From Azolla caroliniana (taxonomy: Eukaryota; Plantae; Polypodiophyta), in NCBI GenBank assembly GCA_043228905.1, contig JBHGNT010000002.1:10106001-10170000 (forward strand): a DNA stretch of 64,000 nt, written 5' to 3'. The notes beneath the pieces are model-generated. The model did not search any database. It had not been told where the DNA came from and saw only the letters and a list, made by a program, of their open reading frames with translations. Numbering within the stretch: the stretch's first letter is position 1; each line of letters starts with the position of its first letter. The position numbers and the translations under genes were made by a program. Of this stretch, positions 32,182 to 63,349 are shown in pieces.

Positions 32182-32207
32182 CCAAATGGCTCTTATTTTG
32201 GCCGGAC

Positions 32208-36180: not shown

Positions 36181-37011
36181 CATGGCACACCCGTGGGATA
36201 GTGCCTTGCACGTTGAACCCACAGGTTAACTCCTTAATCTTCATTGAGTATGTCCAATATGCTCTGGTCCAAGGGTTCGAGTGGTTCCTCCTCTAATTTC
36301 TTCCTCTGTTGTTGCTCCGACTCCCTCTTCGATTGCACTAACCATTTCTCTGATCTTTGGAGCTCTGTTTCTGGTTGTTTATCCGTCTCATTCACCTATT
36401 GCTAATGTTGTTGCTACTCAGTGGAAGCCCCTGTCTTCGGTTGTTGCTCTTTATCACTAATGTTTATCTGGTCCGCCTTTTGCTCCACTTCCTTCCGTTG
36501 TCACTCCTGTTCATATACCTCCAGCTCCAATGTGTTTTGGAGTTGTTCATCCTCGAATCCTTCGAGCAATTTCCGGATAGCGTCCATTTGTGCATTGGCC
36601 AGGGCGTAAAAATCAGCCCTTGCTCCTCCTTGAGTCTCTGTGTGGCTGGCTCTTCCAACTCCTATTCTGGTATCGGCCTTTGTGCCTCCTACTGTTATTG
36701 TGTCGGAGTGGTTGTATTGCTCCATCTTTCTCTAGTGTTTTTGTTGACCTTCCGGCCGGTACAAGGAGTGCGGAACGGTGAAAACATTAGTGGGTTGTAG
36801 ATAGGCCGAGAGGAGAACGAAGTCGCTATGGAGGGGAGAGGGAGACGAAATCACCAAGAATGATTTGAGCGCACCCGAATCGTAGACATAACTTGGTGTA
36901 AGCGAGGTTAGAAGAGATAGGGAGAGGGGAGAGGGAGATGAGGAATCAAACACTAATAATAAACTCTACATAAGATTAAAACACCAAAAAAGATTAAAAC
37001 ATACCCATAAG

Positions 37012-37014
<3 letters not shown>

Positions 37015-37046
<32 letters not shown>

Positions 37047-37059
37047 TAGATAGATAGAT
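37015..37059. repeat. Compound (GA)n(GATA)n microsatellite
   Basis: Read directly. Confidence 0.95.
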
Positions 37060-37749
37060 TATATTATCGTCTTCGGAGGTCAAATATGACCTATGAGACC
37101 AAAAAATTACATTTCACGTGATACGTGTGAAAGTGAGTAGTGACTCTCGATGTTCAAGAACTTTACCAATGAATGTTGCAATTGAGAGTGCACATTGTGG
37201 TTGTGAGAGGAATTCATGCAAAGATTGGGCTCGATCGAAGAGATGTGGAAAGCATGGTCGAATATGATCAAAGGCAGAGCATTGTATCAAAGTGTGATAC
37301 TCAAACTCGCGAACTTGTTTAGGGCAAAGTGTGCATAGCCGACCACTCTCATCACTTGTACCCTAACGCCCTGTTTCACATCACAATGCATGTGAGCTAA
37401 GTCGCATGGAAGCAATGGTTCGAATGGAAGATAACGGTATGGGCTCTAACATTTATGGATGTGTACGATTTCCCCGTTCCGCAAAGAATATGGTTTTGTA
37501 GTTAGGTGCAACATATCTAGTATAATGTGTGAAGCGTGAGCCTCCACATTTGTCCCATGTCATGATACATTGGCGTTGCAAAAATGTATCATGAAAGAAA
37601 TATTAACGTCTTCTAAGGCCAAATTTGGCCCATGAGACAATTGGTTTACAACAAAAATGAGTGTTTATCCAATCATCAAAACTAAAATAAAAGAAAATAG
37701 CTTAAGCTAAAAGAGTAGTACTGTACAAAACTTTGCACTAAGCCTAATC

Positions 37750-40712
37750 TCATTTCCACCCAAGTCTCTCAAAAAGAAGTGGGAGGTCAAAAGTTTTTGG
37801 TGTGGGTGTGACCCATGGTCCCAGTGTATAGAGTGGCCTAGCCATGGCTTCTAGGCGGTGTAGTTCACGTTCCCTTATTTTCTTTATTGCTTCTACATCT
37901 CGTCGAGTTGCTTTGAAACCCGACATCCAAGGGCGTTTGGTTCTTCTTTGATTTTCTGCTTCATCAAGGAAAAGCCCGAGTGGTGTAGGTGTGTCGACAT
38001 TCATTGTCTCCCCATGTTCCTGAAAAACTGCATTTGTTACATGTTGGTAAACATTAGCAACATTATTATCAACATTTTGTAACTTATTCTCTCTGTGTTG
38101 TTTCAATTCTAAGATGTATCTACCTAATTTCTTTATATCTAGTGTATCTAATAGTTTAGGGAGGGTGGGAGAGGAACCAAGTATGTCTTGGTATTTTGCC
38201 CTTATCTCGGCATAGGTGGGGCATTTGCATGTAAAATGGTACTCATCCTCTATCTCTATGTGGCATAACCTACATATCCTTTCCTCCCTAGGGACTTCAT
38301 TAGTACGTCCATTCTCAATCTCAAGTTGGTGAGATGATATTCTAAGTTGACCAATGCCAACCCTTAGTGCATGTGGTAAGAATACATCTAGATATCTTGG
38401 TCGCGTGATAAAACCTAACTTAGAGAAGTGCATAAAGTGTTCCTTATAGTACGACATTTTAGATGGGAGTGGCTCTAGTGGGGTGATCCATTTATACTGA
38501 GTATAAATTTGCCATATTTCTTGGCGTATTTCTTTATTATGGTCCTCATGAGAGATTAAAGTGTTATCAGTCGTGTGGTCGTACTTAAGGGGGGGGAGGT
38601 TATTCATGTCTAGACCATTGGCAAGAAGCCAACTCACCATCACGCCATACCATGAGCTAGTATAGCCGGACTCATACAGTGCTCGAGAAGCCTTAAAGTC
38701 TTGATGGGATATTCTATCAAGTGGTTGGTTATGTATCCTGTGGATAAAGACTACAAGTTGAAAAAGTGCTTCTACTAACATAGGGGGTAGAGTGAACTTG
38801 GCCCTAATAATGTCATGTGGGACCGACGATTTGCTTCGGAGTTGGCGTGATAACGTCATCACCAATGGTCTCTCTAATTGCATCCACATGAAAGATGGTA
38901 GTCCTGGAGCCCAAACCGCTAATGCATACATGAGAGAGGGAGTCACTAATGAGTCAAAGAGCCACCCTTTAGTTCGTGGCTCTTGGAAGTATGCTTGGTG
39001 GCATTGTCTCTCGAGGAGTGAGAGGGATGCATGTCTTCTTGTAAGTCTATCCTTCGCTGCTTGTGTCATCGAAAATTTACCTGAGCTAGCACTGAAAGTG
39101 ACTCCGAGGTAGACATATGATCCAACCACCTCAACTGGGCTATGGGAGATAGTTAGGTGACACTTAGCTCTAACTTGGGCCGACGTGTGGAAGATAAGGA
39201 CTTTATTTTTCCCTAGATTCACTACCAATCCTCGTTGTGTGCAAAAGTCATCTAAGGCATTAAGGTGCCTTTGTACGTCGTGTTCGGATTCAGAGAGCAA
39301 AACTATGTCGTCTGCATAGAGCAAGATACACACCTGTGTATCCCCAAGGACTACTCCATTGCCTCCCTTACAAGCAATAAAATTTGTGATCTCATCAATG
39401 TAGATCCCAAAAAGAGTCGGAGATAAGGGGCAACCTTGTTTTACACCAATAGTGCTAGTGAAACTATCGGATATGCCCTTGCTCGTCTCTTCCGACGTGT
39501 CATCTTGCACATTTCTTTACGAGCTTGTACTGAGGTAATACTACCACTGAGTTGCGATATTGTAAGTTGTCTATGTAAGCACCTACAATCCTCATCATAC
39601 CATCTATTTTGTGGCATAGATCCTACTTTACCTTGATTGGAGTGTTTCGTGTATGGGAAACTACTAACTGCTGCGGAGTGAAGGATGTGTGTGAGTTTCG
39701 TACTAAGGCTCTCTAAAGGTAGTGAAGGATCAAGGGAGGACAGATGGGCTTGAAAATGTCGAGCATATATGTCAGAGAGCTCATGTGTGAAATGTATTGT
39801 GATGTCATGGCGTGGTTGACTAGAGTTGGTGACGTTAGCGATATCGCATTTTAGCTCGAAGTATAAGAAACTATGGTCCACGCCAATAGGACATGGGGCC
39901 ACTCGGAAGGAGTTAATCATGTGGGTAGATTCATGGCGTCCTATTAGATAATCAACTGTGCTTTCCCCTCCTCCATGTGGGAAACATGTGAGCTCTTCCG
40001 AACCTAGCCACTTGGCTAGACCATTATATATGACCATGTGGTGCCGACTACCAAGTTCGAGCAAATGATGGCCAAAGCTCGTGGCGTCCGCACCTAGATC
40101 CTTTGATCTACGTGTGGTGTCTATGTCTAAAGGATCGACATTTACCATTTCTAGGTTTCTATTCATTTGAAATATTGTGCATTGTCGGGATTGGGTTCTC
40201 TCATTAAAGTCTCCTACAAGGAATACTTCTCCTTGGGAAGAATATCGGATTATGTCATCCGATAGAGGTTCATATGGGGAAGGCCCATGTGGCACTCCTT
40301 CATCAACTAATCTCGCCTTGCCAGCCAGATTATAACGAGAGACTTTCGGGGGGAAGTAACAAGTGGCAAAAAATACTGCCTCGTCCTTGCTTGTGGAGAC
40401 TTTCACTCACATAAAACGAGCTTCTGGGTTTGTGCTCAGTATTTCTATCCTATTATGTAGCTCCCTCTGAAACAATATTGCGACACCTCCATATCCCTTG
40501 GTAGTGCATCGACGTGAGGTTTGTCTAAAAGCCGACTCCCAACGAAATCCTTCGACTCGTGGGAGTCCCCTATTTGGGTTTTGGTGTGTTTCTACTAGGC
40601 AAACTATATCTGATTCCTTTAATATCTCCTCTAGGCGTCTGGGGTGTGTCCAGAGTGCACCGTTACAATTCCATAAGGTCATCCTAAGTGTGCTTTCTAT
40701 CACATGGACCAC
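37750..40712 (-). pseudogene. LINE ORF2p (APE endonuclease, RT, C-terminal zinc finger); in-frame stop at 40407, deletion near 39480
   Basis: WNCNG, DIVCLVETH, GGVAIL, VGDFN, STVDY, DH; KQGCPLSPTLF, LLYADD, YVYLGV; RICRLCHIEIEDEYHFTCKCPTY. Confidence 0.9.
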
Positions 40713-40718
40713 ACACCG

Positions 40719-41525: not shown

Positions 41526-42019
41526 TGTAGTGTCAATAAGAAAAAAAGATAAAATAAATGGGTTTGAGACTTAGCCGAGTTTGTGTGTATGTCGCAGTCA
41601 CATCGGCATTTTGCACGCGATGAGCATGCTAAAAGAACAAGGATGCGCCGCCAAGAAAAGAAATACGGCACTCGGCAACGTCAAGAACAAGAAGGAGAAG
41701 AACATGGAAACGGCAATGGCGACTATGACGGACGATGACGAATGGCCGCAGGTTGTCCAACACACAGACGGCAACTGACGGCAATTGATGACAGCGTGGC
41801 AATAAACGGCGACAGACGTCAACAGATGGTGATGGACGTCAGAGGCGGCAATGCGGAAACAAACAACAACACAATAGGGGGGGGAGAGAGAGAGTGCAAC
41901 ACGGTAGCAAGTGGTGACAAATGTCGTAGACGGCAACGACGGCAGCGTGGCAACAACAGCACGACCGTTGCAGAGAGGCAACAACAGCACGACCGTTGCA
42001 GAGAGAGAAATTAAAAGGA

Positions 42020-43190: not shown

Positions 43191-43219
43191 GCAAACGAAG
43201 CCCCTGTAGCAGCAGAAAA

Positions 43220-44862: not shown

Positions 44863-45638
44863 TTCCATCTTTGCTAATTAGGTAAGCTGTATAAATTGTG
44901 GAAACTATTTAGCTATTAGGGTTGTAGTGTAGTAGTTAATTACCTAACATGTAGTTAATTAGCTAAGTGGTAGCTAATTAGCTACTACCATACTTTAGCT
45001 GAGTACTTAGCTAGGTAGCTACTGCCATACTTCAGTTGAATAGATAATTCGCTAAGTGGAAGCTAATTAGCTATTACCATAGTTTAGTACACTAGCTAAT
45101 TAGGTAAGTGGTAGCTAATTAGCTACTACCCTAGTTTAGTGCAGTAGCTAATTAGCTAAGTGGTAGCTAATTAGCTCCTACCATAGTTTAGTGTAGTAGC
45201 TAATTAGCTACTATCATAGTTTAGTGCAGTAGCTAATATGCTACTACGATAGTTTTGTACAATAGCTAATTAGCTAAATGGTAGCTACTTAGCTACTACC
45301 ATAGTTTTGTACAATAGCTAATTAGCTAAGTGGTAGATAATTAGCTACTACCATAGTTTAGTACAATAGCTAATTAGCTACCAGTTAGATAATTAGCTAC
45401 TACCATACTGTAGCAAAGTAGCTAATTATGTAAGTGGTAGCTATTTAGCTACTACCATAGTTTAGTACAGTAGCTAATTAGTTGAGTGGTAGCTAATTAG
45501 CGACTACCATAGTTTAGTACAGTAGTTAATTAGCTAAGTGGTAGCTAATTAGCTACTACCATACTTTAGCTGAGTAGCTAATTAGCTACCACTTACCTAA
45601 TTAGCTACTACCATAGTTTAGTACAATAGTGAATTAGC
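44850..45638. repeat. Tandem satellite, ~52-bp (and ~33-bp) units built on the palindrome TAGCTAATTAGCTA
   Basis: Consensus TAGCTAATTAGCTAAGTGGTAGCTAATTAGCTACTACCATAGTTTAGTACAG. Confidence 0.93.
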
Positions 45639-48600
45639 CAGTCCTTCGACCTAGACCTCAAGGTGACTGCGTTGCAAGGAATGGTACCGTTGTACCGTAA
45701 TACGTAATGGGATACTTCCCCGTATCCTAGTAGTGTATAAGGGAGATGGCTACAACCGAACTCCTTAGGAAGTGCACTTAGTATCTGCACTTACGCCTAC
45801 ACCTTTACGATTACAGTCTGCCACAGAGAACAAAGGACACAGTAGATAAAACCAGAAATATGCACAGAAATCAGAGAAGATAGTATTCTATTAGAACAAC
45901 GCTCTATGCATCAAAATTACACGTTACCTCTTATAGAGGATTTCTGCCCTTTATATACCCAGGGTCTTTTAGCCGTTCACGCTTCCCGCGTGAACTGTTA
46001 CATGCATTTCTTACGCTTTTACTATATTCTAATATTTCTATGCTTCTGTCTGTCAGTTACTATTCTGGCGGACAACACCTGGCACACCTATGGGATAGTG
46101 CCATGGCACATCGGACCCACCCCTTTAATCTTCGTCCAAAATGGCCCGGATGTTTGGTTCTGCCCCGATGTCCTGGTCTGGGCGCGTCGTTGCGCAGTTC
46201 CATGTCTTGTACGTGCTCGATGGGGCTTTCCATGGTGTTAATGTCTCCCTGTATGGGCAGTCTGGGCTCTACTGGCTCCTCTCGTTCTACTGTGGCTAGC
46301 TCATCTGTTTACGGGCTCTCGGGAGGTTGATGCTCTATCCTGTCCGTAACTTCCTTCGTGTTGCCGGCCGTAGTCGTATGCTCTGGTGAATGGGGCTGAG
46401 GTTCGTCCTGTTCGGTGGTCTCACTTTTCGGTATCGCGAGGGGTTTCGCTCGTTGTTCCGTGCTGCCTACCGTAGTTGTTTTTTCTGGTGACGTGGGCTG
46501 AGGTTCCTCTTGTTCGGCAGTATCACTTACTGGTATCGCGATGGATTCCTTGTTTGGTCGTGTGATGCCGGCTTCCATGATTATGTGAAACATGTCCTCC
46601 TGACTTTTGCCAAAATCGTCTAGTAGCTACGCGAGTTCCTCGGAGTGCTGGTCCGCTAGCATGAGATAATCCTGCGCTGGTCCTCATGTATTGCCGCAAT
46701 TCTTTCCTCATTGAGTTTGTAGAAACCTCGGCCATCTTTCCTTCGGTTCTCATAGTCCGCCTGGTAAGTATGCAACTCCGCCGCTTGTGCAGCCCACACC
46801 ATCTAGCCTTTGTGTAGCGCCGCTTGTAATTGTGTCGTAAACCTCTCCCGATTTGTTTGAGGAAGTATGCTCCTCTTTCCTGCCCATAACTGAGACTCCT
46901 TCAAGTGTAATTCCTCCAGCTTTCCCATTTCATTGTTCAAGTGGATTTCGATCTGATGCCTCACCTCTTGTTCCCTTACAAGCTGCTCGCCGAACCACAC
47001 TTTCTTCTTTTCCAATAATGCCTGGAGTCCCATGATCGCCGTTTCCGATTTTTGTGCTTCCTCCTGTAGTTTGGAGTTTTCTTCTTTCGTGCGGGTGTGC
47101 TCTGCTGCCTCTGCTTCGAGTTTGTCTTCGAGGGCCTTAATTTGCCTTTCGTCCTTTGGCCCGGATGTCCATTTCTTTGTCGGAGGATTGGCAGAGTTTG
47201 GAGTGGAGGCGGTCAATCTTGGATTCCGTCAGCTGCACGACCCACTTTGCTTTTGAGGCAATGGCTGTCTGGGCCTTCAACCTCTTCTCTCAGGGACTGG
47301 TCCTCGGCGTTTAATGGGGGTAGTTCAATTCCCATTTGGCGTATCCCGACATTCCACTATCTTCCTACTCTGGCTAGTGGCCCCTCATCATCACTTTCCA
47401 CCGTTTTTGTTAACGCGCGCTCAATCATTTGTCATTCCGTGTGCTCCTCGGCCATTCGTTGTGAGACTTTTATTTGTTGTGTAGCCAAAAATTCCACGAG
47501 TTCGTAAGTAGTTCCGAACTGTAATAGTGTGCCGAACTCATGGGATGTGTCCAGAATGTCCAGTTCCTTCAAGACCTCGCTTTCCGTTGTAAATACGCCT
47601 TTCCCCCGCTGTGACTGGGCCGTAATGATCGGCCGTGGTTCCCGGATTATTTCAAAACTGGTGTTGGGCTCCGTAGCTACGGAACTGTCAACCACGACGG
47701 TCGTCTCTGTGGCCGTGAGTGTGTCTTTAACTAATCCGCGCCCATCTTTCCTGTCTAGACTCGGCCGTTTCGGCCTCGGACTTTCCTGACGTTGCTCGGC
47801 TTCCTGCTCCTGCCGGGCTTCCTCCCTACGCTCCGACCGTTCTTATTGTCTTGTCCGCGTGCTAGGCTGGGCCGATTGGGATTCATCCTCCCATTCTGTG
47901 GTGGCCAACTCCGCTAACCTCCGTTTCGCGGAACATGGCGGCAGCGTGGGTTTGCTGGGTTGTGGTGTGGGTAGACCTCTGAGTGGGAATAGTATCGTCA
48001 GATACTGTTGTATGATTGGCCTTAGCTTTTTGCCGCCTTGATACGTGTGCAAGCCTTCCCGTCACGTTGGTCCCGTAATGACCCCCCAATCGACCACGTG
48101 CCCTTCGAAGCTATCAATGATGATGCCTGCCTTCTGCTTTGGCATCCCATAGGCATTTACATGCATGCATCCGACTTCCAACAAGAACTTGGCTATTTCG
48201 CGAAAGAAGGGATAGGGGATTTCCTTCGTCTTGTATGCCTTGGTGGACGCCGAATATGCCCTGAAATATCTCTTCAAGGTTTTCGCAGGAGAAATGTCGA
48301 AATGTCTTTCTCCAAGCGATGACAGGTCAAGCTTCTTCCGGATGGATGAGTTGGTGACCGTGTCTATATTGAATTTCTTGGCGATGTCCAGGGCTTCAAG
48401 ATGAGCGGGTGCCTCGGCGACTTTGATGTATCCATCTAGGCACTTTTTGACGAGCCATCTACGCAAGGTTGCAGAAATAGGGATTGGCATTGTAGGAGGG
48501 TGAGACTCGTGGATAGTGGGTGAGGTATGTTGGCTATGGCGAACTTGAGCTCTCTGATATGATGGAGAGGAAGGTGAGTGAGGGGAGCGGTGAGAGCGAT

Positions 48601-51600
48601 GAGAGTTAGAAGGTTGGTTTCTATACTGTGCAGAAAACCTTCTATTTTCTTCTTTTTGTGGCCTAGGGTTCATTGGTCTGTGAGCCATCGTGGTGCCGCA
48701 TGTTCTTGCTTTAGAAATTTGTGCATGCATCAAGTCCTTTTAATAGCGTCGATATCTTCTCTCGTCTTCTTTTTTTTTCTTTTGTAACGGTTACATACAA
48801 TATTATTTTTACACTATAGTACAAGTAGGGTCCTATACTTACTCCACGGATTCACTGGCTTTGTCCTATCCGGCGGGGAACGGGTTAGGTGGCGTAGGCC
48901 CCAGGTAGGGTTTTTAAGCGAAACCCATTCACCTTTTGTCGGAGCACCTCTCCGGCCAAGGTGCCAAGTTGAAACATGCCGTTTTCCACTCCAACTATCC
49001 AGTATAGGCCTGCCTAGCGAAATCTTAATTTTCCTGGCATTTGCCCCATGCATGTTTGAAAAACTAATATGGCCTTCCTAACCGTAAAATCCTTTTCACG
49101 CGCATGCCGATGTCGGTCCATGAATGCTTTGTGCCGCCGTTGTTCTTGTTCCAATATGGCCATACTCCGTATTCGGGTTTCGCCTAGTTCTAGTAGTTGT
49201 TGCAGTCGTATTTGTTCGGATTTGTCCTCTAGTAGCCAGTCTCGTACTTGAATCCGTAGACTGGGTACCTGGAATTCGACTGGCATTACGGCCTCCAGCC
49301 CAAATGCTAGCCTGAAAGACGTGGATTGTATGTTGGTCTTATAGCTGGTTCGATATGCCCATAATACGCTGTGCTATTTGGTATCCCAATCAGTTCTATT
49401 CTCATTGACTATCTTTTTAAGGATAGTTTGTAATGTTTTGTTCGTGGATTCGGCCAAACCATTTGCCTGTGGGCAATACGACGTACTCTTTTTGTGGACC
49501 ACGGTATAGTTTTGGGTCAGTTCGCTGATGATCGTATTCAGAAAGTGACTCCCTTGGTCACTAATGAGCTCAATAGGGTAGCCAAAACGACACGAGATAT
49601 GTTTGTAAAGGAATTTCGCCGTGACTTCCGCGGTATTTTTGCGTAGTGGTTTCGCTTCTACCCACTTGGTGCAGTAATCCGTAGCCACCAAGATATACTT
49701 ATTGCTGGTTCGGGCAGCTGCCGGGGTAAAGGGACCCACAAAATCCAACCCCCACTTTTGGAAAGGATCCAACAGCAACACCGGTTGATGTGGCATTCTC
49801 GCGACTTCCGTGGGCTGGCCCATCCGTTGGCATAAATCACACTGTTTGCAATATTCATACGCATCCTTTTGTGTAGTCGGCCACCAAAGTCCTGCTTGCC
49901 AGATTTTCCGGGCCGTAACATCGGCCGCATAATGTTCTCCCACCATACCGCGTAAAACCGTTGCCTTGTCAACCTCCCGTATTTCACGCCTCCAGATGCC
50001 GTCACTGCCTTTGTGATTAAACAAAAATTACGACTCCGGACGACCTGCCGTTTTTCTCATCCATCCTTAATTGTGGTGGCGGTAATCCCATGGTCAGAAA
50101 GTAGGTCATTTCCATCAACCACCGATCTGGAAAAGTCTTTTCTATTCTTGCTGCTAAAGTTGCTATACGTAGGATGTCCGCATCTGGAAAGTCATCGTCA
50201 TCTTTTTGCGCCATTTCTCCATTATCTAATCTGCCACCGCGTGTTGCGTACCTAGTCGGTGCTCAATTACAAAGTCGAATTCTTGGAGCAGCAGCATCCA
50301 TCTAGTCAATTTTCTTGTCAGTGCCTATTTCCCCAACAGATATAGCAATGTCGTATGATCCACGTGAAACGTGAATTTTCACCCTACCAAATAATGCCGG
50401 AATTGATTGATGTTGTATATCATACCCAACGCTTCACGTTCCATTGTGGAATAGTTACGCTCAACCACTGATAGTTTCCGACTGGCGTAGTACACTAGCC
50501 GGTACCAATTCGGCTCCGTGAGCTGCATCAGTGCACTACCTATTGCTATATCCGAGGCATCCACAAACACGTGAAGTGGTTTCGCTCAATCTGGTGGTTG
50601 TACGACTGGTGCCTTCGTTAGCATTATTTTTAGCGCATCATACGCCTTTCTTCCGTTGATGTCCATTTGAAAGGAGTACGGTTGACGACGACATGTAATG
50701 GTGTGGCGAAATCCACCAAATAGTGTATCATCCGACTGTGCCATCGTATTTGTCCCAGAAACCGGCTGAGTGCTTTGGCATTTGTCGGCGTCTTTGCGTG
50801 AGTAATCGAGGAGATTTTGTTTGGATTGATCGCTATCCCCTCCTTACTGACTAGGTGGCCGAGGAGGGCCTCGCTGGTGACGTCGAAGGTGCATCTAGTA
50901 CGCTCTTGGTGAAAGGTAAAGGGAACGCATTTGTAATGGTTACAACATTCAATTTCCGGTAGTCCACACACACACGTATTTTGCCATTATTCTTTGGTAC
51001 GACTACCATCGGGCTTAGCCATGTAGCTTGCTTGACTAGTCAAATGAATCCGGCCTTGAGAACTTTATCAATTTCCTCTTTTACACGAGCCGCATAATTT
51101 GGATTCATGCGGTATCGAAGCTGTTGGACTGGATTCGCATCGGTCGCTAAATTGATCTTATGTTCATAGAACTTTGGATCTAATCCCTTCATGTCCTCGT
51201 GGGACCAAGCAAAGCCATCTTTATACTTCCTGAGCAGTGCTATCATCGCCTCTCTCTGATCTGGTAGTAACTCTTTTGCGATGGAGAGGAATCGAGGGTT
51301 TGACGTCGTACCTACGTTCACTTCTTCTAGGGCTGAGGCAGCGACTCGTCGTGAAATTTCCATTTCCCTCTTGAACGCCGCTCGTGCTCTGCTTAATTCT
51401 AATATCGACTCTGGGTCTGGTTCATAAGCCTCATCGTGGAGCATAGTAGGCATGGCATAATCCGCCGCGGTTTCTATTATGTCGATTTCGAATAGCGGAA
51501 TGATTCGGGGGTGCTCGTCGAGGTATGCTTCTAATTCTGTATCATCCATCCCATCCAACATATTTATATCTTCCATGTATAACCATGTTATCCCCTTGGG

Positions 51601-52624
51601 TTGGGCCGCCATTTCCTCAGTGGGAACGTGAACCTTCATGCCAGCTCTGTTTGATATTCGCTAAACGAAGCCACGGTCTGCGAAGTAGCATAGGATACGC
51701 TCCTAGGGCGTGGAGGGCGAGGACTACCGCCGAGATGTCGAAGTTATGTCCGCCGATGATGAGGCCTAATTTTCAGATTAAGCCTAAAGGCCTTACTGAG
51801 TGGGTATCCGCCATGCGAAGCCAAAACAGGCTAGCTTCCCATTCTGAAATTCCCAATTGTTCGCATGTTTGACGTATCTCATCTTGCGCGGCCCAATCAA
51901 AATTTTTCGTTTGCTGTCTTGTCGTAACTTGCTGAACGTCCGTCATAATCGTATTGACGGCGGGGCCCTTGCCCTTGCGGAGTGGACATTGAGTGGCATA
52001 ATGTCCGGGCTGTTGGAAAATGAAACAATGGACACTGGATTTGCCTTTCTCGGCAGCTGGTGGCGTTTTCCTATCCCCAGGTATGACCTGCTCCTCCCGG
52101 TCTTGGTTCATTCTTCTGAAAGTGTGAATCGGCTAATTACTAACTACTACCGATACAGAAGAGTGAATGTCGCTACTCAACGTTCTAACAAGGAATTGTG
52201 TTTTACGAACGGAATTATAATATATTAATCGGTAATTACCGTGATCGTTACTTAGTTATAAATTAGGAAGCTTGCTCTTAACAACATAGACAATAGGAAG
52301 AACACAGAATCCGTACAGGATATTCCTAACTTAAACTTATATTACTAAATAAAACGACCTTTCTTACAATGCCTTCGGTTCCCTTTTATAGGTATACCCG
52401 AAGGTCTTTTCTCATCAAGAACTATTCCTACTTACTATCAAGAATTACAAAATTATCTAACTAACTTAGTTCTCTTCATTTACTGCTAAGTCATTGATCC
52501 GAACAGTTGATCCGAACCGACTCCGTTTTCGACGCTTTCCCACTTGTTCAGTAAAACTGACTGTCCGGGTCCGGGTAACACTTGGCACGTCCGTGGGCCA
52601 GGACCTTGTCCAGCGAACCCACGC

Positions 52625-55297
52625 CTATTCCTGTAGCTCTTCATCCGAATCGTTCAGAATATCAAAAATCGAAGGCTCTTCTGGCCTTGGATGTATTCCA
52701 CCTATATTTTCCTCTTCATCTTCATCTTCATCTGTGTCACAGTCGTCATTCGGAGCAGGTTTTGAATGTTGTGATTCGGTTGGCTGCTCTGGTTCACTTC
52801 TTCCGGGAGCTTGAAGACCAGGAGTCTTGCTGGTTCTTTCGGCTTCGATTTTATCCAACTGAACGGAAGTGCCTATATCATTTTTGTCGAATTCTTGCAT
52901 AATACGTTGAATTTCTTCTCTATAAAATGCCGCAATTTCGTCCATATCTTTCATGATATCCTCTTGGATATTGTCAATATCCTTTTGTGCCATTTTAAAA
53001 AAACCTGCACCTTGGACCTGACGGTTATTTTTGTCGGCACGCAATAACTGTAATTCCGCCGCTTGTGCCGTCCATAACTTCCATCCTTGCGCAAGGGATT
53101 CATCGATCATTTTCTTTGCTAGGTTTCGATGTTTCCCTATGATGTGCTGCACTTTGTCCCTAGTGATGCTTGCGACGTATTGGGCGGTTTGCAACTCTTT
53201 CCGTAAATCCGTAATAGTGGTTCGGTTCTCACTTTCAGCTCGCATTAGTTTGGATTCGACTACATATATATCCAGCCGTCTTTGTTCCGATATCTTCCGA
53301 ATTTCGTCCAGTTGTTGTTCGAATGCCGATTTCTCTTTGCTCCATTCCTCCTGCTGTTCCGTAATTCTTCTGTTGACTTCTTCAAGATTCCGCTCTTTTT
53401 CTGTCAATTGACTTTCCTGTGACACTATATACCTTTCGAATTCTTCAATTTGTTCGGTATATGTATGATTGGCCGTCTTAGCTTCTTCTAGATTTTTCTG
53501 TAATTCGTTTATTAATTGATTTTTTTCTTCGAGAACTTTGTATTGACCATTCTGAATGGTTTCTATTTGTTTTTCTAATTCTGTAGTTCGAAATACAGCA
53601 TTGTTGGCCCTTGTTGTTTCTGCTTGACGTGCTTTCTCAGCGTCCTCCAATTTCTGCTGCCATTCTGACTCCGACACCATAAACCGTGCCTGTGTTTCCC
53701 ATTTGTTCAGACTTTCTTTTAGTTCTTTATTTTCTGCCTGTATGTTACAAAACTGATGTTTCAGCACCTCCGCCGATGCTGATACACTTTTGTATCTTTC
53801 AGCCATATCACTGGCTGCTTTGCGTGCCGTTTCATATTCTTTATGAATTTCGACCAGTGCTTCATGTAATGGTGGCATTTCAATAGCCTCCCCTCTATTC
53901 TGTGCACTTCTTTTCCGGCCGATTTTCTCTATCTCTGCTTTTTCTTGAGGTTCCAACACTCCTCGTAAGGCTTTCTGTATCATTATTCGGTCATTATGTT
54001 CTTGAGCCAGCCGTTCTGATACTTCTGTCATTCTTTTAGCCAACCATTCAACCAGTTCGTATGAAGTTCCGAACTGTAAAATGGCAGCTAATTCATGTGC
54101 TGCTGGTGGAATATCCAAGTACCCATGTGCTTCCCGAATTGCTACTTTTGAAGATTGTCCTTGTTGAGGTTGTGTCGAAACGCTCTCATTCCCTGGTTTT
54201 ATTACTTCTGCTACTACAGGCGTATTCGAATTTTCCTTTGTGCGTTGCCTTTTCGGTGCTGACCCCTCACTGTTTTCTGGTTGGAATTGCCGATTAGCCT
54301 TTTGTTTAATCCTTGTCCTTTGTCGCATCTTCTCTGCTTGTTGTCGATTTTCTGTCGGCTGTTGCTTGTTTATCACATTGTCAACTGTTTCTTGTTCGGC
54401 TGCTGGTTGCCTGTTTTCGGAATTCTCTGGTCTTGGTGGTTCTGACTGAGGCATATTTGTTTGTATATTATCGGCATGTGCCAATTCTTCCTCTATCCAT
54501 TCTTCATGTACTACCTGTCGGTGTCTTCGCGGTGCTTGTACTATCGGTGGTCTTCTTGACTGAACAGGAGTTTCCGATTCTTGAATCGGAAACAATACCG
54601 ATATCCAACGACCAAAAATTTGCTTCATCGGTTTTCCTGTTTTTACCCCTTGTAGCTTCTCTCTCAGCGCTTCCCCCGACAATAGTAGCCAGTTGAAATC
54701 CTCTTTTTCGTATGCGGCTATGATAAACCCAGCCCTTTTTTTCGGCATACAATAAAAACGAGGACTGACAAATCCCACCTCTAATAAAAATCTAGCCACT
54801 TCATGGAAAAACTCATCCTTACCTCCATAAGTCTGATATGCTTTTGTCGAGGGTGAGTATTCCCCGAAATACGATTGGAGTGCTTCTGATGAAGGTTTTT
54901 TAACTGCCTCAAAGCCTCCTCTTGGCATCTGTAATGCATTTCGTATTTTCTTTGTGGTGATTTTGGTGATGTCTATTTGTTGTACCAATTCTTCCGCCTG
55001 CGGATGAGGTTCCGCTTCTGCTACTTTGATGAAACCTTGTAAGTTTCTCTCATGAAGCCACAATCGCAGTTCTTCAGACACAGGAATCGGCATGACTTCT
55101 GTGTTTGCTTGTTCTGAATCACTTGTCGATGACGGTTGGAGATCTGCACAGCTTCTGTAGCGATGAAAATCAGAAAAACAGAGTTTGGGCGAACTAGGGC
55201 ACGAAGGCTCAGACTGTTTCGATATCTGCACTCGTTTCTGTTGTTTTGGTGACACAGACGATACAGAAATATGCTTTAAAGATATTAACTTATGCAT
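52625..55297 (-). CDS. Extra ORF (ORF3) of I, 890 aa, unknown function, long coiled coil
   Basis: Uninterrupted ORF between INT and the 3' LTR; homologous blocks in H (48062-48733, 47432-47695). Confidence 0.85.
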   Translation of the reverse strand: MHKLISLKHISVSSVSPKQQKRVQISKQSEPSCPSSPKLCFSDFHRYRSCADLQPSSTSDSEQANTEVMPIPVSEELRLWLHERNLQGFIKVAEAEPHPQAEELVQQIDITKITTKKIRNALQMPRGGFEAVKKPSSEALQSYFGEYSPSTKAYQTYGGKDEFFHEVARFLLEVGFVSPRFYCMPKKRAGFIIAAYEKEDFNWLLLSGEALREKLQGVKTGKPMKQIFGRWISVLFPIQESETPVQSRRPPIVQAPRRHRQVVHEEWIEEELAHADNIQTNMPQSEPPRPENSENRQPAAEQETVDNVINKQQPTENRQQAEKMRQRTRIKQKANRQFQPENSEGSAPKRQRTKENSNTPVVAEVIKPGNESVSTQPQQGQSSKVAIREAHGYLDIPPAAHELAAILQFGTSYELVEWLAKRMTEVSERLAQEHNDRIMIQKALRGVLEPQEKAEIEKIGRKRSAQNRGEAIEMPPLHEALVEIHKEYETARKAASDMAERYKSVSASAEVLKHQFCNIQAENKELKESLNKWETQARFMVSESEWQQKLEDAEKARQAETTRANNAVFRTTELEKQIETIQNGQYKVLEEKNQLINELQKNLEEAKTANHTYTEQIEEFERYIVSQESQLTEKERNLEEVNRRITEQQEEWSKEKSAFEQQLDEIRKISEQRRLDIYVVESKLMRAESENRTTITDLRKELQTAQYVASITRDKVQHIIGKHRNLAKKMIDESLAQGWKLWTAQAAELQLLRADKNNRQVQGAGFFKMAQKDIDNIQEDIMKDMDEIAAFYREEIQRIMQEFDKNDIGTSVQLDKIEAERTSKTPGLQAPGRSEPEQPTESQHSKPAPNDDCDTDEDEDEEENIGGIHPRPEEPSIFDILNDSDEELQE

Positions 55298-55512
55298 GAT
55301 GACTTAAAGAATAGTAATTGCTATTAATGTAGGAATTAATTAGTATTCACTCTTCGTATAGTGGTTGTACTACTTACTAATAATCATGCAATTCCTCTTT
55401 CTATTTATAGTCGATTCAGACTGTTATGGCAAGATTGTATTTCTGCATTTGACAAGAACTATTGAGTGAGTTAGTTAGTTTTTATTTATTTATTTATTTA
55501 TTTATTTATTTT

Positions 55513-58500
55513 TTACTCTTCCGTTTGAATAAACGGATTTACCGGCATATCTCCCAAATACGGTTTAAGCCGGAATCCATTTACCCATTTCGGTAAAACC
55601 TCTCCGGTTAATGATCCCAGCTGATACGTACCATTTTTACTATTAATTATCCATACTGGACCTGTCCATCTATACCGGAGTTTCCCAGGCATAAGTCCCA
55701 TTCTCGTCTGGAATACCAATACCGGTTTCCCAATTTCGAATTGCTCTTCCGATTTCCTTCGATGTCGATTTACGAATGCCTTGATTTGTCTCTGCTTGTG
55801 TTCTAGTGCTGACATTGATTGAATCCGTTCTTCTTCTAATACTAATAAAGCCTCTTTGCGAATCTGCTCCGATTCTATTTCATTTAACTTATTCGTCGCT
55901 TGGATACGAAGTGTCGGAATTTGAAATTCGATCGGCATAACGGCTTCAAGTCCGAATGCCATTCGGAAAGGTGTTGATTTAATGGATGTTTTGTACGAAG
56001 TACGATATGCCCATAATGCACTATTTAACTTTTGATCCCAATCAGTACGATTTTCCTTCACTATCTTCTTTAAAATTGTTTGAATTGTTTTATTTGTCGA
56101 TTCTGCCAATCCATTAGCTTGGGGATAGTAAGGCGTACTTTTCTTATGAACTACGGCATAGTAATTGGTTAATTCGTTAATTAACTTGTTAATAAAATGA
56201 GTGCCTTGATCGCTTACCAATTCTATTGGGCAACCGAATTGACACCATATATTTTCATACAGGAAAATTGTTGTGGATGTTGTTGTATTGTCCCTGAGAG
56301 CTTTTGCTTCAACCCATTTTGTGCAATAGTCAGTCGCAATAATGATATATCGATTACCGGTTCTTGCAGCTGCTGGTTTGAATGGGCCAACAAAATCTAA
56401 GCCCCATTTCTGAAATGGCTCAAGAGGTAAAACCGGTTGAAAAGGCATTCGATCCTTTTCGGTTGGTTGCCCCATTCTTTGACACAAATCGCATTTCTTA
56501 CAGTATTCGTTAGCATCTTTCATCACCGTTGGCCACCATAACCCTCTATTCCATATTTTTCTGGCTGTTGCTTCTCCTGCGTAATGACCGCCAGCAATTC
56601 CACAATGTGACTCTGTTAATATGGCTGATTTTTCAAATTTCCGTACTGCCCTTCGCCATATTCCATCCGCTCCTTTATGATACAACATGTCATTAAATAA
56701 ACAAAAATTCCGACTTCGTACTGCAATTCTTTTTCTTTCATCTGTCGACATGTGTTCGGCCGGAATTCCTGTTGATAGAAATATCGTCATTTCGGAAATC
56801 CATTCATCCTCTTTTTCCTCATTCACTTCTTGTGCTTTTACTGCCTCAACCCGAAATAATTGAGTATCTGGAAAATCATCTTTAACCCCAACCGCTTCTT
56901 CTCCAGACTCAAGCCGACTGAGATAGTCAGCAATCGCGTGCTGTGCTCCTGGTCGATGTATAATGTCGAATTCAAACTCTTGAAGCAATAACGTCCATCT
57001 GGCTAACTTGCCTGTCAATTCTTGTTTGGAAACTAGATACAGTAGAGCCGAATGATCCACATGAAATGTAAATTTCTTACCCAAAAGGTAATGTCGAAAT
57101 TTGTTCACACTATATATCATTCCCAAAGCTTCTCTTTCGGTTGTTGAATAGTTCCTTTCGGCCGACGAAAGTTTCCTACTGGCATAGTATACCGGCCTAT
57201 ACCAGTTTGGTTCGGATAATTGCATTAAAGCACTGCCTATGGCAATGTCCGACGCATAGACGAAAACATGAAATGGTTTGTTCCAGTCCGGTGGTTGAAC
57301 TACCGGAACCTTCGTCAGCATCTTCTTGAGACATTCGTATGCATCTTGTTCTATCCTTGTCCATATAAAAGGAACTTTGTGTACTGCTGTGTGTAACGGA
57401 ATAGCAATGTCTGCTAGATATCTCATCATTCTACTGTGCCACCGAATTTGACCCAAAAATCTACTTAGAGCTTTAGCATTTGTTGGTGGTGTTGCCTCAA
57501 TAATTGCCTTAACTTTGTCTGGGTTCACTGCAATCCCTTCTTGACTAACAATATGCCCAAGTAACGTACCACTCATTACTCCGAATGCGCATTTGGCTGG
57601 ATTTAAGCTAAGACGCCCTTTTCGACATTTTTCTAAACATAGCCGTAAATGCTCAAAATGATCAGCTTTCCGACTATATACTGCAAAATCATCTCAAAAC
57701 ACCTGCATGAAAGCTGGAATATATTCCTCGAATATTTCCTGTATTACCCGCTGAAATGTAGCTGGAGCTGTTTTAAAACCGAACATCATTACTACTGCCA
57801 CAAAGACACCCCATTCTGTGACGAAAGCTGTCTTTTCCTGATCTTCCGGATTCATCCGTACTTGGTTGTACCCACTGAACCCATCCAAGAAACTATAAAT
57901 TTCATGTCCCGCTACTGCATCTAATATCCCATCTGTGAATGGCAACGGAAACGCATCCGTAATTGTCGCTGCATTCAATTTTCTGTAATCCACACATACG
58001 CGAATTTTCCCATTCTTTTTCGGGACTACTACTATCGGACTCAGCCATGTTGATTTTTTGACGGGTCGAATAAATCCTACTTTTAAGAGTTTATCGATTT
58101 CTTCTTTTACTTTGATAGCATAATTCGGATTCAACCTGTACCTGCGTTGTTGTACTGGCTTTGCATCTTTATGCAAATTGATTTGATGTTGACAAAAAGC
58201 GGGATCCAGACCTTTCATATCGTCAAACGACCATGCAAAAACATCTTTATATTTTAATAGTAATGTTGTTAATGTCCGTTTGTCATTTTCCGCCAAGTCT
58301 CTAGCAATCAAGACTGTTTTTCTTTTAGCATCCTCTACTCCTGCCAAATCAATCTCCTCCAATGCTGAGGCTTGCACTCTCTGAGATACCTTCATTTCCT
58401 TATCTGTAGCTTCTTGTTGCATTCGTATTTCTTTCATTGTTTGCTCATCTATTGGCACTTCTTCGTGTGAGTCTACATATGGTGTTAATGCTTGCAAAAT

Positions 58501-61005
58501 ATCTACCTCAAATAGAGGGATGATTTTCTGATTATCATCGAAATACTGACTTTCTTCTTCCTCGTCCAATCCTTCCATCATATTAACTGCTTCTGCATGT
58601 ACAGGTAAACTCTGTTTGCTTGTTGTCACTTTGTTGTGCGTTGGAATCCTGACCTTAGTTTTTCCTTTCCTAAATGTTAGCACATTTTGTTTCCAATTTT
58701 GTTTAATATTAGTTGTCTTTAACCATGGTCTCCCCAATAACAAGGGGTATGCTCCGTGTGTTTCTAATTGCAAAATTACTGCCGAAATCTGAAAACTGTG
58801 TCCCCCGATTATTACATCCAGTTGTCGAAGCAAACCAATCGGTCGTACCGTACTTGTATCTGCCATTCGTAACCAAAACGGACATGCTTCCCATTCCGTG
58901 ATTCCTAGTTTTTCACATGTAGTTTTGTTAATCACATTAACACCCGAGCCTCCATCTATAATCACATTTCCGATTTCTTGCCCGTAAAGTATTACGTTAA
59001 TCGACGGATTCTGTTCATCCATGATCGAAGGGTTATTACTTGGCTGATTGTAGTGTACTGCTATTTGTTCGGAACCTTTATATGCAATTAATGCTGCCAC
59101 TTTTTCTGTAAACCTTGGTACTAACTTAAGTAAGCCCGTAAGTGGTAATGACACTTGGCAATCAGCCAACAGTTTCCAAGTTTCTTCCTGTTCCTTATTC
59201 CCCAATGACTGTTGTACAGTGATGTTCTGGTCAATGTTATTGTCTTGTAACATTCGATTCACATTACTTTGATTTGCTTCATCCACCCATTCTTTTGCCG
59301 CCTTCCGAACTTCTTCCTGAATTTCCCACTCTGATTGTTTGCTTTTGCTGCGTGTCGTTACTTGCTGAACTTCCGGTATTACCATATTAACTGCTGGACC
59401 CTTTCCTTTAACCGGACATTGATTAGCATAATGGCCTAGTTGTCGACAAATATAACAAGTGGGTACAAATGTTGCACTGGTCTCTCCATGTGCAAATTGG
59501 CCGTTATTAAATTGGTGCTCTTCATTACCACTCGGGTTTTGTTGGTATTGACGTGTAGCTTTTGGTTTGTAAAATCTCTTGTTTTTATACCGATTCTGCC
59601 TAAATTGTTCAGTATTATCATTTGGTTGTGCTACATTTTGTGTTATCCCGAACTCCTGATTTGGCGGAAAATTATTCTGTTGAAACATTTGATTATTTTG
59701 TGGAACGGTTTGAGTATTATGTTGAAAGGTCATATTACCCGGTTGAAATGCCGGATTTGGTTGAAATGTAGAATTCGGTTGCACATTCGGACAATTCTGT
59801 TGAAACCCTTGAAATGGTGGGTTACCTTGTTGGAAACTTTGATTATTTTGTTGAAAATATTGATTCGGATTCTATACGAATGGTGGGTTGGATTGAGCAA
59901 AACCTGGTTGAAATGCTTGAGTCACCTGAGTGGGTTGCATATTTTGTTGTGAAAAGATCTGATTTGGCTGTAGAACCGGATTTTGTTGTACATTTTGCTG
60001 ATTTTGTGAAAAATTATTATTTTGATAACCATTGAACAGATTAGTGTTATTTTGGTAACCATTGTCAGTAAAAATTTGTCGTACTGACGCCGTAGTCTTA
60101 TTAAGCAGATTATATTCACATTGTTCTACTGAATGTAATTTTGAATGACATATTGTACAATGTGTTCTTAACGTACATTCAATTGCCGAATGCCCCGTAT
60201 TTAAACAAGTGGTGCATTGAACTGCTTGTCGAAATTGTAACTCCTCTATTGTCGGTAATGTACGGTGTAATGCCGGCATGTCCATACTCTGAACATTGAC
60301 CGGTGGTCGACCCATTTCTATTGCTTTATCAATTACTTGTTCGATAGTCTGATTTCGAAAATCGAACACTTTCAATGTCGTCCTTAATGGTTCTTTTACA
60401 GCTTCCAGAAAGACTTCTTTTAATTCATTATCCGGAATCGGCCTTGAAATCTGAAGCTGTAAGTTCTAAAATCGTATCACAAACTGAGATACTGTTTCAT
60501 TTTTTTCTTGATATAACGCATAAAATTGCGCAATCAAATCCTTCTGCGGAATTTGTTGATGAAATAATTGTAAAAATTTACTAGTTAACACTTCAAAGGA
60601 TGGAAATCCTTGAAGACCGTTCTGCGCAAACCAATTGGCAGAATATCCGTCTAATGATAAGACGAACTCAGCGATTTTTGACTTATCTTCGGCATCTGCC
60701 GACAATCGCTGAGCTCCATGGTTAATCTCCCATGTCGTTAAGAAATCCCTAACATGTGCTTCCGCATCTGTTCCCTCCCGGAACTTAGAATAAGTATAAG
60801 GCATATCGTCCCAAATGTCGTAAAACGATACCTCTTCTGTCTGTTTTTCGTCTGAAGGTAATTGATCGGATAAGTCAGGAAGTTTCGACCACTTTGTGCT
60901 TGATTCCGGCTGTTCTTGCGCAATGAACGCTTCCTGCACTGCCTTCGTAACTGACCTTGTACAAGGGTGCTTACAAGTGACCGGTGTCTCCTCTTTATAC
61001 GACAT
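55513..61005 (-). pseudogene. gag-pol of I in four open segments (60466-61005, 59872-60375, 57694-59784, 55513-57576)
   Basis: Three CCHC knuckles; IIDGGSG (PR); LDGFSGY and MMFG (RT, frameshift at the catalytic FxDD near 57694); EREAL (RH); WGLDFVGP...YYPQANG...WTGP (INT); no chromodomain. Confidence 0.93.
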
Positions 61006-61040
61006 CCATTCGATTTGTTCTCTGCTTAATTGCAGATGTA

Positions 61041-61053
61041 ACCGGGCGTGCCA
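61041..61053 (-). promoter_or_regulatory. Probable PBS of I (tRNA-Arg-like)
   Basis: Minus strand TGGCACGCCCGGT, 11 nt inside the 5' LTR; resembles the complement of plant tRNA-Arg(UCU) 3' end as recalled. Confidence 0.65.
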
Positions 61054-63349
61054 AAATTCTTCTGTGTTAATCAGCTAATTACTAACTACTACCGATACAG
61101 AAGAGTGAACGTCGCTACTCAACGTTCTAACAAGGAATTGTGTTTTACGAACGGAATTATAATATATTAATCGGTAATTACCGTGATCGTTACTTAGTTA
61201 TAAATTAGGAAGCTTGCTCTTAACAACATAGACAATAGGAAGAACACAGAATCTGTACAGGATATTCCTAACTTAAACTTATATTACTAAATAAAACGAC
61301 CTTTCTTACAATGCCTTCGGTTCCCTTTTATAGGTATACCCGAAGGTCTTTTCTCATCAAGAACTATTCCTACTTACTATCAAGAATTACAAAATTATCT
61401 AACTAACTTAGTTCTCTTCGTTTACTGCTGAGTCATTGATCCGAACAGTCGATCCGAACCGACTCCGTTTTCGACGCTTTCCCACTTGTTCGGTAAAACT
61501 GACTGTCCGGGTCCGGGTAACAGAAAGTCCGCGGTGGTTGTTGTTGGTCCCGACGTAGCTCCTGGTGCCGATCATCGTCCGAACTTTCGTCGTAATGCCA
61601 TTGGTCCCTATATTGTCAATGTTTCCCGCGAGACCCATTGAAGCCACCACGTTTGTTCACCGGACGGTTGTTTTCGTAACGTCGTCCTCCTTTATTATAT
61701 CTGTGGTTGCCCCAGTAGTCTTCGTCCTCCGATTCTTCTTCCTCGGAAACGTTGTTGTTCTGGCGATTCTAGTAGTGTCGGTCATCTCGTGGATTCTGAT
61801 CCGTATACCGGGGTCATTCCTCTTGGCGCCTTTAATCATTACGACAATGTGGTCGTTGTGTTTCTACGCTTCGTACTATGGGCGTGGGTCTGTTCAACAT
61901 ATTGTACTCACACTGCTCGGACGTGTGTGCTTTCAAGTGACAGATTGGGTAGTGGATTCACATGTTGCATTCCATTGCGGAATGTCCAAAATTGAGGCAA
62001 ATTGTATACTGGATTGCCTGGTGAAAATGTCGTTCCTCGTCCTGAGGTAATGCTTGTCGTAATCAGGACATAGAAAACCTTTCCTCTTCTTCCTCCAGCT
62101 CGAGCTGCAACGCTCGTTCTATGACCATATCAATTGTTTCTTCTTTCACGCTATTGTTGTTGAGCATTGTCCATATCGGTCGCCGTAAGGCTACCAACAA
62201 TGTCTCCCGAGCCTCGTCCTCTGTCGGGCCCCATTCTAATTTCTGTCATAGATTTTGGACGCGTAAACTGAAGTCCGCGACAGTCTCGGCTGGCAACTGT
62301 TTCATTGTATAGAACTACCCGAGGATTTCGCGTTGCGGCACCCTCCGATGAAAGAACAACATAAAGGCCGACTGCAGCTGGTCGAAGGTCGTGATTGTTG
62401 ACAGATCCATCTGCGAATGCCAAAACGCAGCTCTACCATCCAACGCTAATCCAAACTCTGTCATTTTGGACTGGTGCGCTACCTCTTCAGGAAGTCTCTA
62501 CACCATGTGATTCGCATTCCAGACATTCAGGAATAGGAGAATGTGGGTTGCGGTGTCTGTTTCACCGTTGAAGCGGGGATAGGAGAAGGCCATGCTAGAT
62601 GCTACAGCAAGTAGGGGAAAACCATTGTACTTGTGTGGTGACGGAACTTCCTACGTGTCTTCGGGGTATTTGGTGAGCGGGAAGGCGATTTTGTGGTCCC
62701 AACAGATATCACTGAGGTCACTGAGGTCAGGTTTTTGCTTTGCGCGTTCCTCTACCTAGCGTGTGATGGACATTGTGACTGGTCAGTCGTGTCGAGTTGG
62801 TTCTCTGGGACGTCTACGACTAAACATCCATTTCTCATTGTTCGTCAGCGAGAAGACACATATCACCAAACGTGCCAAACGTGTTACCGATTAGGAACAC
62901 AGTCTACGGTCAGTCCTTCGACCTAGACCTCGAGGTGACTGTGTTGCAAGGAATGGTACCGTTGTACCGTAATACGTAATGGGATACTTCCCCGTATCCT
63001 AGTAGCGTATAAGGGAGACGGCTACAACCGAACTCCTTAGGAAGTGCACTTAGTATCCACACTTACGCCTACACCTTTACGATTACAGTCCGCCATAGAG
63101 AACAAAGGACACAGTAGATAAAACCAGAAATATGCACAAAAATCAGAGAAGATAGTATTCTATTAGAATAACGCTCTATGAATGAAAATTACACGCTACC
63201 TCTTACAAAGGATTTCTGCCCTTTATATACCTAGGGTCTTTTAGCCGTTCATGCTTCCCGCGTGAACTGTTACATGTGTTTCTTACGCTTTTACTATATT
63301 CTAATATTTCTGCGCTTCGTTCCGGCGGTTACTATTCCGGCGGACAACA

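Follow-up and report, generated by a model that had tools for sequence, protein, structure and literature searches.

A conserved tRNA-Arg-derived module likely replaces the polypurine tract in plant Ty3/gypsy retrotransposons

The retrotransposon cluster and its LTR junctions

We analysed a 64,000-nt stretch of Azolla caroliniana DNA (GCA_043228905.1, contig JBHGNT010000002.1, positions 10,106,001 to 10,170,000; hereafter the window), which is a nested cluster of plant long terminal repeat (LTR) retrotransposons. Our subject is three of its elements, I, H and K, which carry a tRNA-derived module beside the 3′ LTR, where a polypurine tract (PPT) would be expected. Element I (Ty3/gypsy, 52123-61522, minus strand) is nested within the older element H, and K is a fragment with a single LTR, its partner not being found in the window. 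The parts of the three elements are listed below, with open reading frame (ORF), primer binding site (PBS), reverse transcriptase (RT), ribonuclease H domain (RH), integrase (IN) and target site duplication (TSD) abbreviated.

52123..52580, minus strand: 3′ LTR of I, 458 nt; TSD copy at 52118-52122
52583..52622, minus strand: 3′ module of I, at the PPT position; stop of the extra ORF 2 nt before, 3′ LTR 2 nt after
52625..55303, minus strand: extra 3′ sense ORF of I, 891 aa; no Pfam family
55513..61074, minus strand: gag-pol frame of I with in-frame stops; gag, zf-CCHC, RT, RH and IN (Pfam)
61017..61053, minus strand: 5′ PBS region of I; 13-nt complement of the tRNA-Arg(UCU) 3′ end, hairpin from nt 19, GAAC at nt 34
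61065..61522, minus strand: 5′ LTR of I, 458 nt; TSD copy at 61523-61527
45639..46077, minus strand: 3′ LTR of H, outer end cut by satellite; 94% identity to the 5′ LTR
46080..46120, minus strand: 3′ module of H, a decayed copy, 2 nt before the 3′ LTR
46680..52027, minus strand: extra-ORF and pol remnants of H with many breaks; I inserted to their right
61838..62833, minus strand: gag remnant of H
62840..62877, minus strand: 5′ PBS region of H; 14-nt tRNA match with three C-to-T changes, GAAC at nt 35
62882..63349, minus strand: 5′ LTR of H
35715..36180, minus strand: LTR of K; left boundary approximate, by similarity to loci L102 and L046 (see below)
36183..36222, minus strand: 3′ module of K, 2 nt before its LTR

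The two LTRs of I are 97% identical and are flanked by a 5-bp TSD, while H has no checkable TSD, as the satellite truncates its 3′ LTR. The PBS lies 9-11 nt from the LTR end in I and 4 nt from it in H. In I, the module fills the whole gap between the stop of the extra ORF and the LTR.

Judged from their sequences, the elements are Ty3/gypsy retrotransposons outside the chromoviruses. Element I has the gag-protease (PR)-RT-RH-IN order, direct LTRs with TG...CA ends, a TSD and a tRNA-complementary PBS. The protease gave no Pfam match in I and was judged present by eye, and neither a chromodomain nor a second, archaeal ribonuclease H (aRH) gave a Pfam match in I or P0001. RH and the IN zinc finger are about 114 aa apart. 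Among named proteins, those nearest to the RH-IN region come from liverworts and a conifer (39-46% identity) and from angiosperms (33-39%). In a quick tree of the RH-IN region with 53 rows, taken from the top 45 and 17 named ones among 120 listed sequences together with two from the window, I groups with otherwise unnamed proteins in a clade of 11 rows (SH-aLRT 99), away from the angiosperm rows; the tree is unrooted, holds no labelled reference rows and assigns no named lineage. The extra ORF has seven homologues at 65-87% identity, and comparison with the PMD, ATHILA ORF-1 and Transposase_32 protein clusters gave weak leads only, all below threshold. In I and several relatives, the extra ORF is intact although gag-pol is broken.

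A sequence-only reading of this DNA had placed an inverted PBS-like motif at the 3′ LTR junctions, and we find it at 36183 (K), 46080 (H) and 52583 (I), in each case exactly 2 nt after the LTR-terminal AACA, with the corresponding 5′ PBS motifs on the minus strand at 61053 (I) and 62877 (H). The proposed minus-strand coding holds as well: in I, gag, zf-CCHC, RT, RH and IN follow in this order, with the extra ORF in the same sense. The 15 nt beside the 3′ LTR contain 9, 9 and 8 purines in I, H and K, respectively, and no G-run, in agreement with the claimed absence of a PPT. Six other elements had been credited with a PPT; the four that we checked all have a clear one, with 12, 11, 12 and 12 purines in 15 nt and G-runs. 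The 11/12-bp inverted repeat described for I is reached only by counting one flanking T and is 10/11 when read from TGG. We rejected the alternative that the internal region is inverted and the motif an ordinary PBS, since the ORFs, the TATA-like boxes and the second PBS all lie on the minus strand.

The module is conserved across many families

The motif is longer than earlier noted, forming part of a structured tRNA-derived module of 40-41 nt. On the RNA strand, the module consists of GTGGG, TYCR, a 16-17-nt insert, CCCAY and a 10-nt tail ending in CCA, followed by 2 nt and then the 3′ LTR. We made a search pattern from the I, H and K copies, in which the insert, four tail bases and both flanks were left free. 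The 40-nt pattern has three matches in the window, namely the copies from which it was derived, and none in 100 shuffles. The outer stem and the tail end are fixed by the pattern, and their invariance is therefore not evidence.

A scan of metagenome contigs yielded at least 124 matches in at least 121 loci, with about 220 estimated in all. At least 111 of the matches listed (108 loci, labelled with L-numbers) belong to one plant-derived contig series, ERZ1034, and the other 13 were put aside as likely chance matches. Among the matches listed, TG stands two bases after CCA in 105 of the 111 ERZ1034 matches versus 1 of the 13 others, these bases (nt 3-4 after CCA) not being required by the pattern, and TGTT follows the 2-nt gap in 92 of the 111. 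The gap between module and LTR is mostly 2 nt and is 4-5 nt in two small families.

The 111 listed matches and the three window copies fall into at least 26 flank clusters with unrelated LTRs and upstream sequences. Matches to pol or the extra ORF occur in 32 of the 108 listed loci and lie sense and upstream of the module in 30 of the 32, which also contradicts the inverted internal region; the exceptions are L012 and L083. In L083, an inverted extra-ORF fragment (296-1230) directly precedes the module, the breakpoint falling about 30 nt away. Furthermore, public-run contigs covering a 59-nt stretch, which number 526, 807, 299 and 275 in organisms A-D, agree at the module and diverge on either side, an island of conservation common to many families. 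A conserved purine tract was also looked for in the other copies, and the purine fraction at the junction is 0.47-0.60 across families, in loci that were themselves picked by the module.

No relative was found among viral contigs by a protein-based locus search, and the pattern scan of viral contigs gave nine unrelated matches, none followed by an LTR-like start. The pattern has no match in prokaryote genomes, no Rfam family matches at the modules and ARAGORN reports no tRNA in the window.

The six loci L014, L016, L024, L038, L052 and L087 belong to a family, F0, which has units of about 2.2-2.8 kb that lack pol matches. Several of these units stand in tandem LTR-internal-LTR arrays and they keep the module and a 10-nt PBS; they are likely non-autonomous derivatives. 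Locus L102 (301-567) has its module and PBS region only about 230 nt apart and represents a very short deleted derivative of a K-like family.

The module derives from tRNA-Arg(UCU)

Comparison with tRNA 3′ ends, as the sequence-only reading had proposed, identifies the motif with tRNA-Arg(UCU) in the form found in locus L031, where two sequences resembling tRNA-Arg are present (ARAGORN; Rfam, 54.5 and 35.9 bits). In sense orientation, the module reproduces approximately nucleotides 49-76 of this tRNA, comprising the T-arm, the 3′ strand of the acceptor stem and CCA. Relative to the tRNA copies, it has about 13 nt inserted after A58, which form a hairpin, and has lost one C; the same C is missing from all four modules found outside the strict pattern. 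A role of the module as an RNA polymerase III (Pol III) promoter was rejected in view of its layout.

The better L031 copy directly adjoins an LTR end as a full-length complement including CCA and is followed by an integrase fragment. Two such LTR/tRNA/integrase joins are present (L031:2040-2420 and 2768-3227), the second 720 bp on and more decayed. The copy ends in CCA, starts at the first base of the tRNA and joins integrase, features that speak against a host tRNA gene and because of which we read the join as likely a fossil of RT having read through the mature minus-strand primer; L031 is one low-coverage contig, and the join may instead be an assembly chimera. Read as a fossil, it resembles the over-extended plus-strand strong-stop DNA that HIV-1 makes when its primer is unmodified (PMC13191261), and it supports tRNA-Arg(UCU) as the presumptive minus-strand primer. 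The true tRNA end, with the extra C and no hairpin, was found in the 5′ flanks of the 108 loci and the window only in the two L031 copies and one unrelated match, a sample too small to count either way.

Within the module, the insert hairpin shows compensatory change. Among 49 distinct 16-nt inserts, four of the six hairpin pairs covary beyond column shuffles, being paired in 40, 36, 44 and 45 of the 49 versus shuffle means of 31, 28, 22 and 27; the remaining two pairs show no covariation beyond shuffles. In 35 of the 114 matches (31 distinct), picked to cover the families, the hairpin has 28 double changes, where shuffles give 9.0 and slid controls no more than 10. These shuffle tests are inflated by sequence relatedness. 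RNAalifold predicts the outer stem and not the inner hairpin, single-sequence folds of the module are no better than those of shuffles (z from −1.7 to +0.9), and the H module folds differently. Taken as a whole, the module is a genuine, structured feature that is conserved from family to family.

The 5′ PBS region follows the tRNA and mirrors the module

In I, L015, L017 and L081, the 5′ PBS agrees with the tRNA at 13 of 13 nt, including a GG that is absent from the module, versus at most 11 nt for the module type. In I, H, L015, L017, L027, L077, L081 and L102, the PBS continues as the complement of the tRNA and not of the module, and in the coding-type families the tRNA match spans 13-14 nt, beyond what the module could supply. 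Across eight PBS regions from about four coding-type families, conservation is highest in the first 13 nt and in an AAC block near nt 34-37. GAAC, the complement of tRNA G53-C56, stands at nt 33-35 in seven of the eight and is preceded, from about nt 19, by a hairpin-forming segment whose sequence differs between families; I, L015, L017, L081 and L102 show a clear hairpin, and in H, L027 and L077 it is weak or decayed. In the minus-strand copy of the module, GAAC or GGAC stands at nt 32-35 in 26 of 26 family representatives, where the search pattern forces the motif. The 5′ PBS region of the coding families thus mirrors the minus-strand copy of the module, with tRNA complement, hairpin and GAAC in each. 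The gap between LTR and PBS varies from about 1 to 11 nt, unlike the gap between module and LTR.

In the single low-coverage copy that represents family F3 (L025:1827-1863), the PBS has a tRNA match of about 7 nt and a T-loop-like box at nt 17-24.

Which RNA primes the plus strand

The absence of a PPT, the fixed 2-nt spacing between CCA and LTR and the conservation across many families support a non-canonical priming site well, and the module likely replaces the PPT as the site of plus-strand priming. The fixed offset makes CCA the likely end of the plus-strand primer. For the RNA that ends there, we favour a host tRNA over the RNA of the element.

Specifically, tRNA-Arg would prime the minus strand at the 5′ PBS, for which the inference is strong. 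After strand transfer, RNase H would clear the RNA, since no purine tract resists it. A second tRNA-Arg would then pair with the minus-strand DNA over three separate stretches of about 10, 7 and 10 bp; a single C of the tRNA would bulge out, and the hairpin of the template would form a loop facing 1-methyladenosine 58 (m1A58). RT would extend the CCA end of this tRNA through the 2 nt into U3, the 2 nt later being trimmed by integrase. More speculatively, the bulge and the hairpin might interrupt the tRNA/DNA hybrid and so spare the primer from RNase H.

We lean, by a little, towards this docking of host tRNA-Arg on the minus-strand DNA copy of the module, in view of the mirror layout, the position of the insert opposite m1A58, the three-segment co-fold and the wobble-compatible tail changes. 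m1A58 cannot base-pair (PMC13191261). When the L031 tRNA end was co-folded with seven module complements, each formed the three-segment duplex, the inner hairpin staying outside it, at 17-27 kcal/mol below the separate folds (with RNA-RNA parameters, and a guide only). Furthermore, nearly all fixed tail changes in high-coverage contigs are G-to-A, a change that still allows pairing by a tRNA G, and C-to-T changes occur among the matches listed in 1 of 37 high-coverage versus 18 of 74 low-coverage contigs, a weak lean towards wobble-compatible changes. In its widest form, this reading is of a high-copy plant Ty3/gypsy lineage, with its non-autonomous derivatives, that would have given up the PPT and would prime both strands with tRNA-Arg. 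The docking sites at the 5′ end of the RNA and the 3′ end of the minus-strand DNA would be matched, each with tRNA complement, hairpin at m1A58 and T-loop box. To this reading as a whole we give slightly better than even chances.

Several observations weigh against tRNA docking. Tail G-to-A changes are also depleted in high-coverage contigs (6 of 37 versus 27 of 74, among the matches listed), the fixed tail variants represent only about four or five independent events, and G-to-T changes, which would mispair, occur in several families. Two families have changed bases equal to tRNA G59/U60 together with the hairpin partner, so that selection there follows the fold of the element and not tRNA pairing. 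Pairing with the tRNA is imperfect owing to the lost C, yet all four non-pattern modules lack this C as well, and the mirror layout was not found in the PBS of F0 (17 sites, about 10-nt match) or of L025. A tRNA/DNA hybrid is a substrate of RNase H. Finally, the mechanism is wholly inferred.

Of the three modes put forward in the sequence-only reading, a second tRNA on minus-strand DNA thus fits best, and the next, with perhaps one chance in four by our judgement of its merits, is priming by the RNA of the element itself as a structural substitute for a PPT. RT would pause at the hairpin or recognise the tRNA-like end, RNase H would cut after CCA and the surviving fragment would prime into U3. 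The fixed 2-nt spacing is equally expected here, and no tRNA has to unfold on DNA. This alternative stays in contention through the covariation of the inner hairpin, which includes compensatory changes at the expense of tRNA identity, and through the RNase H problem. The tail measures 10 nt, against about 13 bp between the polymerase and RNase H sites of Ty3 RT (PMC5371799), so that a pause at the stem could put the cut near CCA. Priming by the element's RNA leaves unexplained both the hairpin-plus-GAAC layout of the 5′ PBS, a site for tRNA binding in trans, and the lean of the tail changes; in addition, the segment is not purine-rich, single-sequence folding does not set it apart from shuffles, and RNAalifold gives the outer stem only.

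It is improbable that the module serves some other role, such as packaging, dimerisation, binding of RT or a tRNA factor, or a translation or 3′-end signal after the extra ORF, with the plus strand starting elsewhere or from an unrecognised weak PPT. The module does follow directly on the extra-ORF stop in several families, and in some the sequence just upstream is purine-rich (up to 0.76 in 25 nt). Others are pyrimidine-rich there (0.35) and no tract is shared, on which grounds a conserved PPT upstream of the module was rejected; moreover, a primer at least 40 nt upstream would not yield a fixed 2-nt offset, and F0, which has no pol or extra-ORF match of its own, retains the module.

A panhandle, in which the 3′ tail would base-pair with the 5′ PBS within the RNA as a minus-strand self-primer or an aid to strand transfer, is the least probable reading: it has 10-11 bp of complementarity and the proposed covariation in its favour, in that PBS position 10 tracks tail position 1 (T-A, C-G) in most two-ended loci, but the tracking is broken by L014, L016 and L077, the 5′ PBS follows the real tRNA rather than the module in the eight elements and loci named above, the PBS/tail mismatch of I is retained in L015 although their extra ORFs are only 83% identical, L031 has a complete mature tRNA-Arg copy at a PBS, and the 2-nt spacing to U3 is unaccounted for.

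Neighbouring elements

A 52-bp palindromic satellite lies on both sides of H (window 44900-45640 and 63350-64000). Further pol and gag fragments of the same clade, with 54-74% amino-acid identity to I, lie at 1019-4855 and 34522-35073, their LTR junctions lost or interrupted. A Ty3/gypsy element of another lineage at 28169-33820 has 400-nt LTRs that are 100% identical and a clear PPT; no tRNA-type PBS follows its 5′ LTR, and it may use Tcn1-like self-priming.

Outside the window, tRNA-Lys genes (three Rfam matches) and a tRNA-Leu-like sequence (L078:1063-2828, L036:2215-2291) lie within about 1 kb of a family LTR or module, which may reflect chance or an insertion preference.

Implications and comparison with known systems

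LTR retrotransposons and retroviruses are generally held to prime the plus strand from a PPT. If a natural lineage succeeds without one, RT must be able to make integration-ready ends from a different primer, be it a tRNA annealed to DNA or a structured RNA. With a 40-nt module, a known tRNA and a fixed 2-nt offset, the lineage offers a compact, testable system for asking what lets an RNA primer survive RNase H. In annotation, such elements may escape LTR finders in which a PPT is required or scored, and a module misread as a PBS would flip their annotated orientation. We found no description of a tRNA-derived PPT replacement in the literature searched, in which coverage of subscription papers and Repbase reports is thin.

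Canonical Ty3/gypsy elements and retroviruses (PMC5371799, PMC13191261) share with these elements the LTRs, the TSD, a tRNA-primed minus strand, the gag-PR-RT-RH-IN order and a primer end fixed beside U3. They use an RNase H-resistant PPT, in place of which I, H and K have the tRNA-derived module. The bipartite PBS of Ty1 and Ty3 (PMC5371799) likewise uses separate tRNA segments including the T-arm, one of them in Ty3 near the 3′ end; these segments are tRNA-complementary on the RNA and serve minus-strand priming, with the PPT kept. The module, in contrast, is tRNA-sense on the RNA, so that only minus-strand DNA could bind the tRNA.

Among plant lineages, Athila (Neumann et al. 2019, PMC6317226) shares the lack of a chromodomain and aRH, the 5-bp TSD and an extra 3′ ORF, whose orientation is ambiguous in the source table. 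Its PBS types are Asp, Asn and Ala, whereas the I family uses tRNA-Arg(UCU), and the available text of the source does not mention PPT replacement on the Athila side of OTA. The Tat lineages (Ogre, Retand and TatI-III) have an aRH (PMC6317226), which was not found in I by Pfam; Ogre, Retand and TatIII are Arg-primed. Phygy/Selgy have a 4-bp TSD, a tRNA-Trp/Ala PBS and no extra ORF, whereas I has a 5-bp TSD, an Arg PBS and an extra ORF.

Two further systems bear on captured tRNA sequence and unusual primers. Helenus terminal-repeat retrotransposons in miniature (TRIMs) (Kojima 2024, PMC10886601) likewise contain tRNA-derived sequence captured by an LTR element, in their case inside the LTR as a Pol III promoter and with the PPT kept; the module is external to the LTR, has no box A and a box B interrupted by the insert, and carries CCA at its end. 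The self-priming elements Tf1, Tcn1 and TAR (PMC6317226) also depart from the standard primers. There, element RNA replaces the minus-strand tRNA, whereas the I family keeps a normal tRNA PBS and has its plus-strand signal changed.

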